The translations under genes were made by a program, and so were the position numbers. From a phage, in sequence record PZ386947.1: a stretch of 64,000 nucleotides of DNA; one strand, written 5' to 3'. This document shows positions 590 to 48,153 of the stretch, in pieces; the stretch's first letter is position 1, and each line of letters opens with the position of its first letter. The notes under the pieces were generated by a model. It had not been told where the DNA came from. It ran no database searches and saw only the letters and a program-made list of their open reading frames with translations.

Positions 590-3286
590 TCAGCCAAACA
601 GGAAGTCTAACGAAGCTTTTTCTTCATAGTCCATACCAGCCGATTCACACATACCCGCAAGCGGTTTAACAAACGATTTTTGGAACAAAGTTGAGTAGTC
701 AATCCAAGATAGTACATCAGAACGAATTTCTTTTGGAAGTTCTGTACCCGATGGCCAAGCAATGCACTTATCACCAAACGGATTTCCTTCACGTAATGGA
801 AGAACCATTACTTTATTTCCATCCAAAATTGGAGCTACACCCAGACCACTAACAGCTCGACGATAAGTTAGCACACCACGAATATGGAACGGGCATTTAA
901 ATCCTGGCCAACCTTTATCATCATATTTCGCTATATCGTTCGCAGTTTTTACTTCAGCAATAACTTTATAGTCAAGTTGACGATATTCTTTCTCGAAGTT
1001 CTTGTAATATTCTTGGACAGACTCTTCGCCTTCCTGAAGAATACGACGAATACTTTCTTCGAGAGCTTCTTGGACCGCTTTAGGCGTTGAACTCTGCTGA
1101 GTTTCCATACCCATGATTTTTAGATGTGGTTCAGCAAAACGCTTATCTTCCATATCATAAACGTTCAGAGCATAACGCTTTTTCGCTTTCCAAAATCCAC
1201 CAACACCCTTTGAACCAAGTGGAGGGCAAGAAATAGCTTCACGGTCCATATGCATCAGATGCTCGCGGTTATTCATATAATCACATAACTCACGATATGC
1301 AACATCAATCATAGGTTCCATCTTTTTCTTACCGAACTGATTCATGAATTCAACTAAATCGTTCTGCTCTTTGAATCGGTCAAGACCAACTTTTTCAATA
1401 ACTTTATCTACACAAACATATACAGAATCAGTATCACCCGCTGCGATGAAATCTTCGCCATTAGTTCCACACACCTTATTCAGGTATTCATTAATTTTAC
1501 GAGCAATCCACTGAATACCAACTTGACCAAAAATTGTGATAGCAGTAGCATTTCGCAAATCATAGTAACGGAAATGAATATTACCAAGAGCACCATAAAG
1601 ACTGTTGATAAGAATTTTACGGTTTAGCTGATTTGTGTTAGCAAGTGTAGCTGCTTTTTCACATTCTTCGATCAGACTATTAAGAACAGATTCGGTGTAA
1701 TTCGATAATTCATTTAAGAAATCATCACTGAACTTAACATATCGTTCAACTTCTGGTTTAGTTGAGCGAGACCCTGCACCTTTCATAATAATCTTTTTAA
1801 TAGCTTCGGCATTCATTTCTTCGGCGAACATTTTCTTTTTCCAATCTTTACGTTGGAAAAATACTTTAGCGATTTCCTTTGGAATGATACCTTCTTGATG
1901 CTTATCATACATCCATCCATTCGGAGAACAAGAATATTCATCACTTGGCTTAGGAGCTGTTCCTGCGATATATTCATGAATTGGATGAACTTTAAACTGA
2001 CCACGAATAGTCTCAGGACTAATGTTAACCTGACGAATAATGCTAGGATACAGAGACGTCAAGTCAAAACTCATAATGTATCGACGAGCAATCGGTTTAG
2101 GTTCAAATACAAATGCACCTGGAAAACTTTGTTTAACGTGCGAACCTTGTTGAGGAATAACCTTATGTTCACCTTTCAACGAGTTAAAAATAATAGCATC
2201 CCAAGTTTTAATAGGACTCATTACACCAGAAAAAGGCATTTTAGCATAATAAGACATACTTAAAACTAGATCGATAAACCCACGAATTTTATCAATTGCT
2301 TGAACTGATTCTACGTCAATGATGTTATAACTAATGTATCGTTGATGATTAGTCTCACGAAGTTTATTAATAGGACCGTCGTATGGCAATTTACCTTTTT
2401 TGGTTTCATGTTGAGCAACTGATTCCAAAGAGAATGATGGCAAATTAGTAAATGCGAATTTCTTGTACAAATCTAAATAATCAAGAATAGATACGCCATC
2501 AATAGAATAAATTTCTTTGCTACCGTACATATTTTGAATTAGTTTAGATTTTACTCGACCGATTGGAGAGAAGCGTTTCATACTGCGTTCGCCCAGAACC
2601 ATTTTAACACGATTCATGATATACGGAACGTCAAATCCCTCAATATTCCAGCCGGTAAAAATAGCAGGTCTTTTCTGTTCCCAGAGATTAATATATTCCA
2701 TGAGCATATCACGCTCATTATCAAATGGCATATAAATTACTCGGTCAAGAATTTCTTGAGGAACTTCATCACCACCTTCACAGTCAAGTTTAGCAGCTAA
2801 CTTTGCATCCCATTTTGATACTGAACCGTACATTGAATTCAACAAATCAAAGACGTAAAAACGGTCGTCAATTGAATCATAATGAGTGATAGCATCAATT
2901 TCATATTCTGCTTTCATTGGGTCAGGAAATTTATCACCAGTAACCTCAATGTCACAGTTAGCTACACGAACAAATTTTCGGTCATAAACAATTTCTGAAC
3001 CATATGTATCACTGATATAAGCGAGTTTAAAATCGTTCATACCGAGAGCTTCGAGACCGATGTCTTCCATTCGCTTCATCCAATCTCGAGCATCTTTCAT
3101 TGATGGAAATTTTTGAGGAGCGCAGTTTTTACCATAGATGTCTTTGTATTTTGACTCTTCCTTACAATGCCTAAACATAGTTGGAAGATATTCTACTTCA
3201 CGAGTACGTTCCTTTCCGTTTTCATCAATATAACGTTCAACAATGTTATTTCCGACTGTTTCAATAGAGATATAAAATTCTTTCAT
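590..3286 (-). CDS. 43: DNA polymerase gp43 (family B, with 3'-5' exonuclease)
   Basis: 898 aa ORF; N-terminus MKEFYISIETVGNNIVERYIDENGKER..., exo motif FDIEV, polymerase motifs SLYPSII and YGDTDS; same length as T4 gp43. Confidence 0.97.
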   Translation of the reverse strand: MKEFYISIETVGNNIVERYIDENGKERTREVEYLPTMFRHCKEESKYKDIYGKNCAPQKFPSMKDARDWMKRMEDIGLEALGMNDFKLAYISDTYGSEIVYDRKFVRVANCDIEVTGDKFPDPMKAEYEIDAITHYDSIDDRFYVFDLLNSMYGSVSKWDAKLAAKLDCEGGDEVPQEILDRVIYMPFDNERDMLMEYINLWEQKRPAIFTGWNIEGFDVPYIMNRVKMVLGERSMKRFSPIGRVKSKLIQNMYGSKEIYSIDGVSILDYLDLYKKFAFTNLPSFSLESVAQHETKKGKLPYDGPINKLRETNHQRYISYNIIDVESVQAIDKIRGFIDLVLSMSYYAKMPFSGVMSPIKTWDAIIFNSLKGEHKVIPQQGSHVKQSFPGAFVFEPKPIARRYIMSFDLTSLYPSIIRQVNISPETIRGQFKVHPIHEYIAGTAPKPSDEYSCSPNGWMYDKHQEGIIPKEIAKVFFQRKDWKKKMFAEEMNAEAIKKIIMKGAGSRSTKPEVERYVKFSDDFLNELSNYTESVLNSLIEECEKAATLANTNQLNRKILINSLYGALGNIHFRYYDLRNATAITIFGQVGIQWIARKINEYLNKVCGTNGEDFIAAGDTDSVYVCVDKVIEKVGLDRFKEQNDLVEFMNQFGKKKMEPMIDVAYRELCDYMNNREHLMHMDREAISCPPLGSKGVGGFWKAKKRYALNVYDMEDKRFAEPHLKIMGMETQQSSTPKAVQEALEESIRRILQEGEESVQEYYKNFEKEYRQLDYKVIAEVKTANDIAKYDDKGWPGFKCPFHIRGVLTYRRAVSGLGVAPILDGNKVMVLPLREGNPFGDKCIAWPSGTELPKEIRSDVLSWIDYSTLFQKSFVKPLAGMCESAGMDYEEKASLDFLFG

Positions 3287-37845: not shown

Positions 37846-38262
37846 TTAAATGTAAATATTTTTGCCGTAATACTTATACCAGTGTGGCTTCATTAAAATT
37901 TTTTCATCGAGTCGTTGTTGACTCAACTTAATAGCTGATTTGCATGGATTATAATCATTTTTCCATTCTACTGGAATATCGCTGATGTCAGGAACTTCAG
38001 TATCTTTTATACTGAACCCGCGTTTTAAGCATTCCGTTATAATGTCCGATTGACGCTTTCGCAAAAATTCTAACTTATCGTAAAAGAAAGTAACATGACC
38101 AGAACCTAAAATAAATTTAGAAGATATTTTAAAATCTTTAACGCGCTTACCGTTTGCCACATGCTTACGAACTATACCAAAAACACGCGGCAATTCACGG
38201 TATTCTGCGATTAAATGTTGATCAGCAAGTTCAGATACTAAAGTCAAATTAATACGAGTCAT
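37846..38262 (-). CDS. denV: endonuclease V (pyrimidine dimer glycosylase)
   Basis: 138 aa; [44 protein letters not shown]... matches T4 DenV. Confidence 0.95.
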
Positions 38263-38321: not shown

Positions 38322-38852
<531 letters not shown>

Positions 38853-42018: not shown

Positions 42019-42282
42019 TTATTTCATATTATTGAAATATTCTTCTGCGATTTCGTCGTTATCATGGTAAACTTTAGAAGACAGTTTAACATAACCTTCA
42101 GCAGTGAACATGTTAATCACAACCTTTACAGTATACCACTGACCATCTTCATTACCCATTACTGCGTAAGTTTCAAACATCGGATGGTCAGGACCGATAA
42201 CTTTAATATCATTCACTGTACGACCGAAATCTTCTGAAACACATTTCATAAAGAAGTTGAACAGCTCACCGTAATTATCCAT
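42019..42282 (-). CDS. hypothetical protein
   Basis: ORF track 42019..42345; trimmed to MDNYGELFNFF (GGAGAA RBS); upstream extension is promoter read-through. Confidence 0.5.
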   Translation of the reverse strand: MDNYGELFNFFMKCVSEDFGRTVNDIKVIGPDHPMFETYAVMGNEDGQWYTVKVVINMFTAEGYVKLSSKVYHDNDEIAEEYFNNMK

Positions 42283-42325: not shown

Positions 42326-42354
42326 ATAGTACCATGGAAGGACAAGGATGTAAA
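42326..42354 (-). promoter_or_regulatory. T4-type early promoter
   Basis: Minus strand TTTACA, 17 nt, TACTAT. Confidence 0.65.
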
Positions 42355-42487
42355 CCGTTTTGTGAAAAAATTTTTAAAAAGTTTTGGGGAATTCTAGGGC
42401 AGGAAGGGGAAATCAAAGGATAGGATAATATATTATAAAGGGTAGAAACTAAATGATGTCTAGAGAGGCCTGGAAAGGCCTAGATAC

Positions 42488-42513
42488 CAAAAAGCCCCAA
42501 CCTTTCGGTCGGG
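42488..42513 (-). terminator. rho-independent terminator (copy 1 of a duplicated 30 bp element)
   Basis: AGCCCC-hairpin followed on the minus strand by TTTTT; identical 30 bp sequence recurs at 43043-43072. Confidence 0.65.
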
Positions 42514-42523
42514 GCTAAGAATG

Positions 42524-42997
42524 TTATTTGATTTGTTTAGCAGACCAAATGCGATCTTTAATAATTTTTTGGATGTCTTCAACATACTCAAGAGAGTGAG
42601 CATGTGGATTATCTTTGAAACTATAAGCACGAGCTAGTTTTTGGCCTTCAGTTTTGATTACTAAAAGCTCTTTAAGGATAGCTTCATATTTGGAGATAAT
42701 TCCTTTAACAATATTTTTTTCTTGTGCAGCTTTAGGATCTGCTTTAGGAGCAGGTTTACCCGAAGCCTTTGCAAAAGCAGCGCCAGTAGCAACTAAACTT
42801 TTCCAGGCCATACTAACTGCATTTCCCGTAAATCCTTCCGCTTTCATGTCGCGTGCGAACTGGAATCGCGATTCATCAGAAGCATCTTTATAAGAATATT
42901 TACCCGCTGCAATGGCTGCTTTTGCGACAGCTTGAATTTCGGTGCTAGATGCTTCATTTAACACCGCTTCATTTAAAAATTGAGTATATGATTTCAT
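42524..42997 (-). CDS. internal-protein-like basic protein with capsid targeting sequence
   Basis: 157 aa; N-terminus MKSYTQFLNEA resembles the T4 IP capsid-targeting sequence MKTYQEFIAEA with an L-x-E prohead protease site; Ala/Lys-rich. Confidence 0.6.
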   Translation of the reverse strand: MKSYTQFLNEAVLNEASSTEIQAVAKAAIAAGKYSYKDASDESRFQFARDMKAEGFTGNAVSMAWKSLVATGAAFAKASGKPAPKADPKAAQEKNIVKGIISKYEAILKELLVIKTEGQKLARAYSFKDNPHAHSLEYVEDIQKIIKDRIWSAKQIK

Positions 42998-43044
42998 CTT
43001 ATTTCCTGTTTTAATTCGTGGTTTTAATATACTTATTTATACTA

Positions 43045-43070
43045 AAAAGCCCCAACCTTTCGGTCGGGGC
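43045..43070 (-). terminator. rho-independent terminator (copy 2)
   Basis: Same hairpin AAAAGCCCCAACCTTTCGGTCGGGGCTAAG; minus-strand U-tract follows. Confidence 0.6.
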
Positions 43071-43122
43071 TAAGCCTTGCGGCAACCTTGTCGGGGTTCC
43101 ACCTGCTAAGGCAAGTGTTTGT

Positions 43123-43213
43123 ACGAAACGCCGGGATTCGAACCCGGTTATTAAGCAGTTGACGCTACTCAATATTTTTAAAAGGCCATATCTCGACCAT
43201 ATCCGAACGTTCC
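43123..43213 (-). ncRNA. candidate structured small RNA / tRNA remnant
   Basis: GC-rich non-coding stretch with a perfect tRNA-like T-arm (CCGGG-ATTCGAA-CCCGG, plus coords 43131-43147) but no foldable anticodon arm. Confidence 0.3.
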
Positions 43214-43380
43214 GTCAAAAACGCTACTCGGCTTACGGCAAAGATATTTCCTCGAATCGATAATTCGGTGCGCCGTTTCTGCTGTGATGTAAGAGGGCAT
43301 CAATAAACGCAAAGATTATTAACGCAATTCCTTACTCAGGGAACATCAGTCCGACGACTTACCGGTAGCGACCCGGTTTC

Positions 43381-43731
43381 TTAATATTCTTTTAAAGCAT
43401 CAATCTGTTTACGGCGTTCACGCCATAAATCAATTGCTTCATACGCGGATTCAACATTTCGAATTGGACGGCATTTATATAAAGATTTGTGATTTTGATA
43501 TTGCGTAGATAACGGAATTTTATCTAAAAGGTCTTTACGTTCAAAGTATTCGTAACCATCTAAGCCAAATGAACGATTTTTGAGAAATTGCCAATGACCA
43601 AATTCGTTTTGAATATAAATATAATCCGCATGTTGATAAAGTAAATTAATTTCACGAAATGAGATATGTTTTTCATATTCATTGAAGTAAAATGTTAAAT
43701 CATGAACTACTAAATAAACATTACCTTTCAT
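43381..43731 (-). CDS. hypothetical protein
   Basis: 116 aa ORF between the small-RNA region and tRNA-Arg. Confidence 0.5.
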   Translation of the reverse strand: MKGNVYLVVHDLTFYFNEYEKHISFREINLLYQHADYIYIQNEFGHWQFLKNRSFGLDGYEYFERKDLLDKIPLSTQYQNHKSLYKCRPIRNVESAYEAIDLWRERRKQIDALKEY

Positions 43732-44182: not shown

Positions 44183-44833
44183 TTATATATTGTTAATTTG
44201 ATTTAGAATTCTTTTTGCTTGAGTATGACTTACGCCAATATGCTTAGCATATTTAGACAATTCGCCACGTTTAGAAAAATCATATAATTTAGAAATTTCT
44301 ATTCTTCTTTTTCTTTCATCCGCAGAAACTTTTGCTTCGTTTGCTTTTGCTATTTTACGTTTAGCTTCTTGAGAATGAGTTTTACCAGCAAAGCCATTCT
44401 TCATTAATCCATTTGAAGACCATCCTTTTAATTTTCCGTTAGAATGTGCCTTTTTAACACCCAATGAAATTAATTCGCGTTGCTGATCTGTCATAGGATA
44501 ATTATTTATATGATCCCATCCACCTTCACCTCCAAGTTTTAAATTATACACATCTGGTCTATTTAAAAACTCTTCTGTGACAATATTTTTCTCGGCTTCA
44601 AGCATAGATTCTTTATCGTCAAAATACTCTAATATTTCTTTAGAAAAATTTTCTATACCATATTTATCTTGGGCTCTTTTTAATAATTTACCAGAACCCA
44701 TATATCCATCATCTAAATTTTCGGTAGAATGCACACCAATATAAATTTTATTATTAATTTTATTTGTTATTTTATAAAGATAAAAATGCATATCAGTCCC
44801 TAATAAAGAACTGAGCGTCTCACGACGAGTCAT
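44183..44833 (-). CDS. segB: GIY-YIG homing endonuclease (SegB-like)
   Basis: 216 aa; GIY-YIG motif FYLYKITNKINNKIYIGVH; C-terminal DNA-binding region; sits inside the tRNA cluster as T4 segB does. Confidence 0.85.
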   Translation of the reverse strand: MTRRETLSSLLGTDMHFYLYKITNKINNKIYIGVHSTENLDDGYMGSGKLLKRAQDKYGIENFSKEILEYFDDKESMLEAEKNIVTEEFLNRPDVYNLKLGGEGGWDHINNYPMTDQQRELISLGVKKAHSNGKLKGWSSNGLMKNGFAGKTHSQEAKRKIAKANEAKVSADERKRRIEISKLYDFSKRGELSKYAKHIGVSHTQAKRILNQINNI

Positions 44834-45009: not shown

Positions 45010-45642
45010 TTATTTATTACGTGAAAAAGACTGTTCTATCAATTCTGGACACTTTCGTTCTATCCATTTTCTAGCTTTTTGTGGGCTTATACCTATTATT
45101 TTAGCAGCTTTACTAACCCATCCAAATTTAGAATAATCGATTTTAACTAATTCTTCGTAAATTTCATCAGTTAAAATCTTTTCATTAATATTTACCAGTA
45201 AATGATATAATTTATTATCATTAGCAATTTTAATGAATCTTTTATAGTTTCCGCCTTTACTTAAACCTAATGAAGTAATTGCAGATGATATAGTAGCCGA
45301 ATTTAATAGTGCGTTTAAAATTTCTTCATCACTAACATTATAACGCTTTTTATTATTTTTAATATTTTTACCAGCAAAAGTATCAGTTTGCGAATGGCAG
45401 TTTGGACATAATAATCTTAAATTTGATTTAAGATGATTTTTGTTATTTCCATCAATATGGTCTAATTGCAGAACAATATGCTTATTTTGCCATTTTGAAA
45501 TTTTACAAATTGCACACTCATATGGAAAAATATTTTCTTTTATTATTTTGTCTTTCAGCTTTCCTGTACTAAAATTTGGATGTTTTCCTTCAAAAATTTC
45601 AGCTAATTTAGTATCCATAATATGATTCCCAATTATTAACAA
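45010..45642 (-). CDS. HNH homing endonuclease (zinc-finger HNH type)
   Basis: 210 aa; CAIC...HIVLQLDHIDGNNKNHLKSNLRLLCPNCH HNH-Zn motif; stop codon 7 nt from the tRNA-Leu 5' end. Confidence 0.85.
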   Translation of the reverse strand: MLIIGNHIMDTKLAEIFEGKHPNFSTGKLKDKIIKENIFPYECAICKISKWQNKHIVLQLDHIDGNNKNHLKSNLRLLCPNCHSQTDTFAGKNIKNNKKRYNVSDEEILNALLNSATISSAITSLGLSKGGNYKRFIKIANDNKLYHLLVNINEKILTDEIYEELVKIDYSKFGWVSKAAKIIGISPQKARKWIERKCPELIEQSFSRNK

Positions 45643-47093: not shown

Positions 47094-47121
47094 TTTATTC
47101 TCCTCAGTAGCTGATAGGGTA

Positions 47122-47150
47122 ATAGTATCACTACTAAAACCCAATGTAAA
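47122..47150 (-). promoter_or_regulatory. T4-type early promoter
   Basis: Minus strand TTTACA, 17 nt, TACTAT. Confidence 0.65.
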
Positions 47151-47154
47151 CAAT

Positions 47155-47379
47155 TTATTCAACGCCAGCGGCTTTCAAAAGTTTCTTAAGATTGGCAACA
47201 CCTTGAGCAGAAAATGTGACCTTGCCACCTTTTTCACTGATAGAACCAACCAATTTAGCAAGTTTATCATTAGGAATTTTTTTAAAATCAGCCAATGTTC
47301 CATCAAAGGTTTTTGAAACAAAAGGCAGTTCGTCTTCGCGTCTTTTAGCTTCTACAATAAATTCTTGATATGTTTTCAT
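47155..47379 (-). CDS. internal-protein-like (capsid targeting sequence)
   Basis: Starts MKTYQEFIVEA, near-identical to the T4 IP capsid-targeting sequence with I-V-E cleavage site; small basic protein. Confidence 0.65.
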   Translation of the reverse strand: MKTYQEFIVEAKRREDELPFVSKTFDGTLADFKKIPNDKLAKLVGSISEKGGKVTFSAQGVANLKKLLKAAGVE

Positions 47380-47415
47380 TTTAGTTTCCATTTGAGTGTT
47401 TGTTTTGATAGGGTA

Positions 47416-47444
47416 ATAGTATCACTACTAAAACCCAATGTAAA
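47416..47444 (-). promoter_or_regulatory. T4-type early promoter
   Basis: Same conserved element as at 47122. Confidence 0.65.
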
Positions 47445-47463
47445 CAACTTTGTGAAAAATTTA

Positions 47464-47751
47464 TTACAAAAGATTTTTAGCAATAATCTTGAGATGTGCC
47501 GCAGAAATGTGTTTAGCTTTAAACAACGCAGTTTCTTCAGCAGGAGAGATAACGATTGTAGCACCATCCTTTTTAGCAGACCACCCATCGCCTAGGTAAA
47601 CAGTACCTTTGATTTCTTCGCCATCAACCAGACTAATCATTGGTTTACCTTCTCGTCCTTTATTTGCTTTAATAACTTCAGAAGTAAGAGTAGCTTCGGT
47701 AATAGTAGAAACCGGGGTAGTTGTAGAAGTAAATTCTTTGAAAGTTTTCAT
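47464..47751 (-). CDS. internal-protein-like (capsid targeting sequence)
   Basis: Starts MKTFKEFTSTTTPVSTITEA; AGGAAA RBS; own promoter copy upstream. Confidence 0.6.
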   Translation of the reverse strand: MKTFKEFTSTTTPVSTITEATLTSEVIKANKGREGKPMISLVDGEEIKGTVYLGDGWSAKKDGATIVISPAEETALFKAKHISAAHLKIIAKNLL

Positions 47752-47781
47752 TTTATTTTCCTAATTAATTTTGATAGGGTA

Positions 47782-47810
47782 ATAGTATCACAACTAAAAC
47801 CCTATGTAAA
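47782..47810 (-). promoter_or_regulatory. T4-type early promoter
   Basis: Same conserved element. Confidence 0.65.
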
Positions 47811-47823
47811 CAACTTTGTGAAA

Positions 47824-48081
47824 TTATTTTAAATCTTCTAATCGTTTCTTCATCTTAGAACCGTTCTTAGCGATTTCGCCTGCATCAGAGCATAATGCTA
47901 AAAGCGCTTTAACTTTAGTTTGGTCTCCTTTAAAAGATGAAGGATCAACAGCAGCAGCAAGTTCTTTAATACGAGAGAAAAGACGCTCAGCTTCAGCTAA
48001 AGCCATTCCAAGCTTTACTTCCATACCGCGGGAAGATTCAGTAATAGTAGTTTTTGTAGCAAACTCTTTGAAAGTTTTCAT
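47824..48081 (-). CDS. internal-protein-like (capsid targeting sequence)
   Basis: Starts MKTFKEFATKTTITES; own promoter copy upstream. Confidence 0.6.
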   Translation of the reverse strand: MKTFKEFATKTTITESSRGMEVKLGMALAEAERLFSRIKELAAAVDPSSFKGDQTKVKALLALCSDAGEIAKNGSKMKKRLEDLK

Positions 48082-48111
48082 TTTATTTTCCTAATTAATT
48101 TTGATGAGGTA

Positions 48112-48140
48112 ATAGTATCACTACCTCATCAGTATGTAAA
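48112..48140 (-). promoter_or_regulatory. T4-type early promoter
   Basis: Same conserved element. Confidence 0.65.
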
Positions 48141-48153
48141 CAACTTTGTGAAA

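Follow-up and report, generated by a model that had tools for sequence, protein, structure and literature searches.

A duplicated terminator-like hairpin flanks a candidate internal-protein gene at the polymorphic rnaC–e.8 site of T-even phages

The modular shuffling of small accessory ORFs in T4-like phages has been described for genes flanked by PeSL and PmSL elements (Arbiol et al., 2010, PMC2839356; Comeau et al., 2014, PMC4122927). PeSL-flanked ORFs have been shown to be excised as mini-circles in RB49/phi1, and less than 50 bp of homology suffices for recombination in T4 (PMC2839356). The same principle was noted earlier for the genes of the internal proteins (IPs) of T-even phages (Repoila et al., 1994, as cited in PMC2839356 and PMC4122927), for which two loci are described in the accounts that quote this work, ipI next to 57B and ipII/ipIII next to e (PMC2839356; PMC4122927; PMC3012670). 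T-even IPs are injected with the DNA, and those whose targets are known (IPI, Ip2 and Ip3) inactivate GmrSD-family type IV restriction enzymes (PMC12373910; PMC3012670), so that the reshuffling of this arsenal is part of the arms race between phage and host.

The site described here lies between rnaC and e.8 in a stretch of phage DNA of 64,000 nucleotides (the window), which matches Shigella phage CM8 (MK962750, Tequatrovirus) at 100% identity. A 157-aa ORF, gene A, stands there between two copies of a terminator-like hairpin (HP1 upstream, HP2 downstream), and the site is a terminator/late-promoter variant of the known cassette-shuffling theme. As with PeSL and PmSL, short conserved regulatory repeats with a terminator stem-loop flank a small accessory ORF, the ORF has been precisely lost, gained or exchanged between close relatives with one element left behind (here T4 versus CM8, G50 and Shfl2), and the cassette has its own promoter and terminator, so that neighbouring genes are undisturbed. 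PeSL are, however, defined by an early sigma-70-like promoter and PmSL by a middle promoter, whereas the rnaC–e.8 cassette has a late-type TATAAATA; the early promoter of a PeSL is joined to its stem-loop, whereas here an early promoter lies about 140 nt past HP2 and belongs to e.8; and PeSLs occur as many dispersed copies in hyperplastic regions, whereas the present hairpin occupies one locus, in one or two copies per genome. The homology here consists of terminator and T-run only, the resident copy being that of the tRNA/rnaC unit, and whereas the PeSL mini-circles were demonstrated experimentally, the rnaC–e.8 cassette is known from sequence comparison. The likeness to the T-even IP loci lies in a small basic cargo protein whose N-terminal capsid-targeting sequence (CTS) is its sole link to other IPs and in a gene content that varies among close relatives; the repeats at those loci are early-promoter based in the accounts cited, and those at rnaC–e.8 are terminator based. 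A first-pass annotation of the window had placed gene A in a region known to be hypervariable in T-even phages. The site is indeed polymorphic, but the classical IP loci lie elsewhere, next to 57B and next to e, and rnaC–e.8 is a third polymorphic site beside them.

More distant parallels exist. The morons of lambdoid phages (Hendrix and Juhala, as cited in PMC2839356) are likewise autonomous promoter–gene–terminator units between two conserved genes, but are thought, according to that account, to move by illegitimate recombination without conserved linkers, whereas here the terminator is itself the repeated linker. Deletions of T4 at short repeats and GGGC motifs (Singer et al., 1982; Mosig et al., 1998; both via PMC2839356) resemble the present case in that the repeat here ends in GGGGC followed by TTTTT, that a second cassette, B (see below), is bounded by GGGCTTTTT, and that the deletion product keeps one repeat; as quoted there, those were laboratory events in other regions, whereas rnaC–e.8 is a natural polymorphism. 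Integrons, too, have single-gene cassettes separated by imperfect hairpin repeats (attC) at one fixed site. Here, in contrast, the cassettes have their own promoters, the hairpins are predicted terminators, at most two cassettes are seen, and no integrase is found beside the array, which is surrounded by genes for stable RNAs and tRNAs, by two genes for homing endonucleases and by small ORFs. A literature search found no published description of the rnaC–e.8 site, although Repoila et al. (1994) or the supplements of Comeau et al. (2014) may list it.

Exactly two copies of the 30-mer AAAAGCCCCAACCTTTCGGTCGGGGCTAAG are present in the 64-kb window, at 42490–42519 and 43045–43074 (+ strand); no third copy was found there at up to three mismatches, and none in 100 dinucleotide shuffles. 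One further A common to both copies on the left extends the exact direct repeat to 31 bp (42489–42519 and 43044–43074), and with one mismatch it reaches 36 nt (97% identity), the two copies being spaced by 555 (Table 1). The first-pass annotation had reported an identical 30-bp hairpin on both sides of the gene; the two identical copies are confirmed, whereas the positions given for them (42485–42514 and 43043–43072) are wrong by 5 and 2 bases. The ORF between the repeats is exactly as that annotation gave it.

Table 1. Features of the rnaC–e.8 locus in the window, listed in the direction of transcription; positions of rnaD, rnaC and e.8 are from alignment to annotated T4
Feature	Position	Strand	Remarks
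rnaD (species 2 stable RNA) homologue	43267..43381	-	99% identical to T4 rnaD
rnaC (species 1 stable RNA) homologue, last gene of the tRNA/stable-RNA unit	43122..43260	-	98.6% identity over all 139 nt of T4 rnaC
Upstream repeat HP1, predicted terminator about 50 nt behind rnaC	43039..43074	-	Stem-loop 43048-43071, T tail 43044-47
TATAAATA, T4 late-promoter consensus	43034..43041	-	2 nt past T tail, 36 nt upstream of gene A ATG
Shine-Dalgarno-like AGGAAA	43002..43007	-	4 nt before gene A ATG, read from sequence
Gene A, 157-aa ORF, candidate injected internal protein	42524..42997	-	N-terminus MKSYTQFLNE/A; phrog_2280
Downstream repeat HP2, predicted terminator 4 nt past gene A stop	42484..42519	-	Stem-loop 42493-42516, T tail 42489-92
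e.8 early promoter, T4-early-type (G)TTTACA-17-TACTAT with TG extension	42326..42354	-	Kept in T4 and all relatives read
e.8 homologue, conserved right flank of cassette site	42019..42282	-	98% identical to T4 e.8

On the minus strand each copy folds as AGCCCCGACC-GAAA-GGTTGGGGCT followed by TTTT or, read more fully, as CTTAGCCCCGACC-GAAA-GGTTGGGGC-TTTTT, that is, a predicted stem of 10 bp with seven G–C pairs, a GAAA loop and TTTT(T) directly 3' on the transcribed strand. The fold energies of the two copies are -20.5 and -24.9 kcal/mol (z = -4.5 and -4.7, with no shuffle folding as well), and HP1 and HP2 are the top two terminator-like sites between 38 and 48 kb. Their placement shortly behind rnaC and the gene A stop fits an intrinsic terminator, and the same hairpin stands behind rnaC in T4, G50, RB27, Shfl2 and RB69; neither copy has a match in Rfam, nor does Rfam hold a family for rnaC or rnaD. 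Fold and position thus suggest that HP1 and HP2 act as intrinsic (rho-independent) terminators in vivo. The motif TATAAATA is present 15 times in the window against 10.9 expected, so that by itself it is not enriched; its weight as a late promoter comes from position and conservation rather than frequency, (A/G)GTATAAATA being kept in all 19 Tequatrovirus A-carrying loci read and also in the Jiaodavirus KpV477. No -35/-10 early promoter match lies on the minus strand between 42998 and 43047. Gene A would be transcribed late, from TATAAATA.

Two further observations concern the hairpins themselves. HP2 is closely followed on the transcribed strand, at 42466–42481, by another small inverted repeat (+ strand, AGGCC-TGGAAA-GGCCT), the T4 counterpart of which is imperfect (AAGCC...AGACC). 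In KAW1E185 (L016, positions 945–966) the loop of the downstream hairpin is inverted from GAAA to TTTC and the stem is perfected (CCCCAACC/GGTTGGGG), a change that looks like a templated quasi-palindrome mutation.

The predicted product of gene A begins with MKSYTQFLNE/A, to be compared with MKTYQEFIAE/A in T4 IPII and IPIII, and so carries what typifies a T4-type IP, an N-terminal capsid-targeting sequence of about 10 residues ending in (L/I)-x-E; here this is an L-x-E prohead-protease site. The mature part has a pI of 9.5, similar to IPII and IPIII. Beyond the first 10 residues no similarity to IPI, IPII or IPIII is detectable, and the phrog families differ (phrog_2280, of unannotated function, for A; phrog_4363, 7857 and 5341 for IPI, IPII and IPIII). 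T-even IPs, however, share only the CTS (PMC3012670), so that the missing wider homology does not exclude A from this class. Searches with A gave no Pfam domain above threshold and no PDB sequence match, and its homologues form 13 clusters, all unnamed and all from Tevenvirinae. The AlphaFold2 model is all-helical and mediocre (pLDDT 73, pTM 0.40); Foldseek with this model found no meaningful PDB match and, in BFVD, the protein's own family only. Because of the CTS-like first 10 residues and the protease site, protein A most likely enters the head and, like IPI–III, passes into the cell with the phage DNA. In an alignment of the A family, conservation of residues of about 15–80 (AGKYSYKDASDESRFQFARDMKAEGF.GN.V..AWKS) extends from Tequatrovirus to phages of Yersinia and Klebsiella, and the C-terminal half is unrelated sequence in the Yersinia and Klebsiella phages, which suggests domain swapping inside the cargo gene.

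The T4 genome has an empty site, in which rnaC is followed by TTAGCCCCGACCGAAAGGTTGGGGCTTTTT, then GGTATCTAAGCC..., and then e.8, with a single hairpin (the sequence to its right is also read further as GGTATCTAAGCCTTTCCAG... toward e.8). The left flank of this lone hairpin is that of HP1 in CM8 and its right flank that of HP2, and from the rnaC anchor to the e.8 ATG the distance is 239 nt in T4 and 794 nt in CM8, a difference of exactly 555. The empty junction is matched as one contiguous piece by T2 (97%) and T6 (96%), and also by RB3, KIT06, pSe_SNUABM_01, the Mosigvirus phi25-307 and others. The first-pass annotation had proposed looking across T-even genomes for absence of the gene with one residual hairpin, and this is the arrangement of T4, T2 and T6; it had reckoned also with relatives that would all carry the gene between non-identical hairpins, and with a repeat scattered over many unrelated sites, whereas these three phages are without the gene and every copy of the repeat examined lies at this one locus.

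A third arrangement is seen in G50 and two IMG/VR contigs, where the order is hairpin, A, hairpin, a different leader, a second gene (B) and an unrelated hairpin. Gene B is a 187-aa ORF starting with MKTYAEFLTE/A and is ended by CCCTATC-TAAAT-GATAGGG, followed by TTTTTGGTATCTAGG and the usual e.8 leader. Both genes match phrog_2280, although pairwise BLASTP aligns A and B over the first 11 residues only, which bears on whether they are tandem paralogues. If hairpins are the joints, a state with B alone would be predicted; a hypothetical junction of rnaC end, hairpin and B leader was therefore written in silico and searched, and it was found 105/105 in one piece in genomes that include Shfl2, IME340, P922, WL-3 and LF73P3; RB69 matches it at 94%. 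The B-only state is present in at least 22 records. Four states thus occur in nature (none, A, A+B and B), all joined exactly at the hairpin; when B is compared with the empty site, the sole repeat at its bounds is GGGCTTTTT, of 9 bp. In RB69 (L014, positions 2653–3215) gene B is split by an apparent frameshift into two overlapping ORFs (146 aa and a tail), and in KpV477 (L020, positions 2495–3027) the reading frame of an A-like gene is interrupted by TAA after about 78 codons; either case may reflect a pseudogene or an error of sequencing.

The frequencies of the states were estimated in the GenBank phage collection (50,697 records), on which the census rests because a scan of IMG/VR with the rnaC 3' anchor gave only six loci. 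By tblastn gene A was found in 512 records (369 at 90% identity or more) and gene B in 165, each at one place per record. The junction in which A and its hairpin run directly into the e.8 leader was present in 277 records, and the empty junction in about 75–85. The exact 31-mer was found at 516 places in 420 records, with at most two copies per record among the records listed. Two identical 31-mers were present in about 96 of roughly 400 carriers of gene A, so that the perfect identity seen in the window is a minority state; HP1 and HP2 differed by 1–3 of 31 nt in an evenly spaced sample of eight genomes, none of which had identical copies, and by 0–5 of 31 nt across the 19 A-carrying loci read; HP2 is the more variable of the two. 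Within some genomes the two copies share variants, namely AGCC in RB27 and SHBML-50-1, an AAAA loop in UFV06 and TTCC in JK36. Such covariation is not significant in the evenly spaced sample of eight genomes (P = 0.25), and reaches P = 0.008 only in the set of 19, which is biased and not independent.

Gene A and its upstream junction appear to be old. Downstream of the tRNA cluster of the Klebsiella Jiaodavirus KpV477 the order hairpin-TTTTT-AGTATAAATA-A-like gene is kept (in short form, hairpin-TTTTTAGTATAAATA-A-like gene), with an unrelated hairpin downstream of the gene, and a syntenic A of 74% identity is present in the Mosigvirus JK36. Gene A is therefore probably ancestral, and the T4 state would most simply have arisen by a deletion between HP1 and HP2. 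As to how often this happened, the left flank is too conserved to inform. Over 459 nt of the right flank T4, T2 and T6 cluster together, and KIT06, pSe_SNUABM_01 and the Mosigvirus phi25-307 are each nearest to occupied genomes, giving at least four different right-flank backgrounds, in two genera, for the empty site. This pattern fits several independent losses, but recombination near the hairpin could give the same picture.

The B-only phage T4_ev151 (L015, LR597660) has an rnaD/rnaC flank that is 98.8% RB27-like and an e.8 flank that differs by 1 nt in 459 from that of an A+B carrier, IMG/VR contig L006. It might be a laboratory recombinant made at the hairpin; it is the only informative mosaic, and its breakpoint cannot be placed more closely than about 220 nt.

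Our working hypothesis, which we consider likely, is that the hairpins are terminators that double as linker repeats of a promoter–gene–terminator cassette, and that exchange between them deletes, adds and swaps cassettes. The cassette would be a self-contained late gene inserted at the terminator of the tRNA/rnaD/rnaC unit: HP1 would end transcripts running through rnaC, TATAAATA and the ribosome-binding site directly past the T-run of HP1 would drive gene A, and HP2, as a copy of HP1, would end the A transcript and insulate the e.8 early promoter. Because HP1 and HP2 are direct repeats of 31–36 bp lying 555 bp apart, recombination or copy-choice between them would remove exactly one repeat together with the gene and leave the arrangement of T4, T2 and T6, and unequal exchange between the hairpins of co-infecting phages would add or swap cassettes to give none, A, A+B or B. 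The evidence for such exchange is comparative throughout (the repeat with its predicted fold, the order of the genes, and for each of the four states its exact junctions and its frequency). It supports the suggestion of the first-pass annotation that the direct repeats are a plausible substrate for gain or loss of the gene, and from it we infer that HP1 and HP2 are the actual crossover substrate. No genome carries A or B more than once, and neither is found away from rnaC–e.8, so nothing shows movement of cassettes between sites.

The same observations were weighed against other explanations. A single ancient illegitimate insertion could have brought in a cassette with a copy of the resident terminator, the pattern having since been spread in co-infections by ordinary homologous recombination in the rnaC and e.8 flanks, perhaps aided by the nearby homing endonucleases, without the hairpins serving as a crossover substrate. 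The flanks are 92–100% identical between phages and mosaic, so that crossovers within them can spread an existing allele without using the hairpin, and T4_ev151, RB27-like on its left and L006-like on its right, accords with this; so do the non-significant concerted evolution of the two hairpin copies, the confinement of the cassettes to one locus and the presence of SegB-like and HNH endonuclease genes 1.1–2.5 kb upstream. Yet the four states share exactly the same hairpin junctions, which means that the same 31 bp served as end point for no fewer than two or three separate rearrangements, and the empty sites stand on at least four right-flank backgrounds in two genera; we think a single ancient event unlikely. 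Somewhat less likely again is that the cassettes are those proposed above but are lost and gained through replication errors, by template switching or slippage at an extruded hairpin between the direct repeats, perhaps in the GGGC-motif pathway proposed for T4 deletions. The 9-bp bounds of cassette B (GGGCTTTTT) are too short for efficient homologous recombination, the altered hairpin of KAW1E185 bears the signature of a templated event, and GGGC/GCCC lies at about half of 13 T4 deletion endpoints (Mosig et al., 1998, as quoted in PMC2839356). Against this, 31–36 bp is within the usable range of T4 recombination (PMC2839356), and the present data fit slippage and recombination alike. Cassette B and KAW1E185 do leave room for a structure- or slippage-based route, and an extension of this idea would make the rnaC hairpin a dedicated, structure-specific entry and exit site for late internal-protein cassettes, an integrase-free, integron-like array in which units of late promoter, CTS-bearing ORF and terminator would be picked up, stacked (A, A+B, B) and lost again by hairpin- or GGGC-directed strand exchange instead of generic homologous recombination. 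We regard this as improbable; if true, T-even phages could quickly re-arm their injected anti-defence repertoire.

Two explanations that dispense with exchange between terminators were rejected. Target-site duplication by a mobile element or site-specific recombinase inserting gene A would account for direct repeats that bound the insert exactly, and is very improbable: the 555-bp unit consists of no more than a promoter, a single small ORF without a Pfam domain and a terminator, no integrase or transposase gene lies nearby in the window, and a repeat of 31–36 bp far exceeds the usual target-site duplications. Hardly credible at all is that selection for strong termination drove two independent terminators, with no cassette and no common origin, to the same sequence. 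Each is predicted to terminate strongly and has a stable tetraloop of the GNRA type, but their identity runs on beyond the stem-loop, into CTTAG at one end and TTTTT(GGTAT) at the other. None of the shuffles contains a second copy, T4 carries a single copy together with both flanks, the 31-mer was found at the rnaC–e.8 locus only, among the copies examined, and unrelated hairpins stand behind cassette B and behind the A-like gene of the Jiaodavirus.

With exchange between the hairpins as the preferred reading, rnaC–e.8 is a tidy, testable system rather than a surprise, and a clear natural case of a known route by which T4-like phages gain and lose accessory genes. It offers a clean natural arrangement, with a 555-bp unit, repeats of 31–36 bp, four states and hundreds of sequenced phages that cross with T4, and could show whether regulatory hairpins are crossover points in T4-type shuffling, for which the experimental proof so far is confined to the PeSL mini-circles of RB49/phi1. 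It also draws attention to two uncharacterized candidate injected proteins, A in about 500 phage records and B in 165, both of which the laboratory phages T2, T4 and T6 are without.

The tRNA cluster upstream of the site is itself variable. Six tRNA genes lie further upstream of rnaD in the window, compared with eight in T4 and 11 in G50 and slur04, and the cluster is interrupted at 44183–44833 and 45010–45642 by a SegB-like GIY-YIG gene and a gene for an HNH endonuclease; homing-driven co-conversion by these genes could drag the nearby cassette site along. A 116-aa ORF at 43381–43731, between rnaD and tRNA-Arg, abuts the rnaD 5' end; it is noted in the record as 'trna.2 protein' and resembles RB51 orf141, and T4 has no ORF there.

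Other internal-protein loci of the window are organized differently. At 47112–48146 there are four copies of a 45-nt direct repeat (starting at 47112, 47406, 47772 and 48102, the later copies being 98%, 93% and 78% identical to the first), each containing the T4 early promoter GTTTACA...GATACTAT on the minus strand. The copies bracket small ORFs, including one of 74 aa at 47155–47379 (-) that starts with MKTYQEFIVE/A, and this array is a classical ipI-type, PeSL-like arrangement, unlike the terminator-based repeat at 42.5–43.1 kb. The T4 order is e–ipIII–ipII–denV, with early-promoter/palindrome repeats in the intergenic regions; CM8 is without ipII and ipIII, its lysozyme gene e (38322–38816) being followed directly by denV (37846–38262). 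CM8 and T4 thus carry complementary sets of internal-protein genes.
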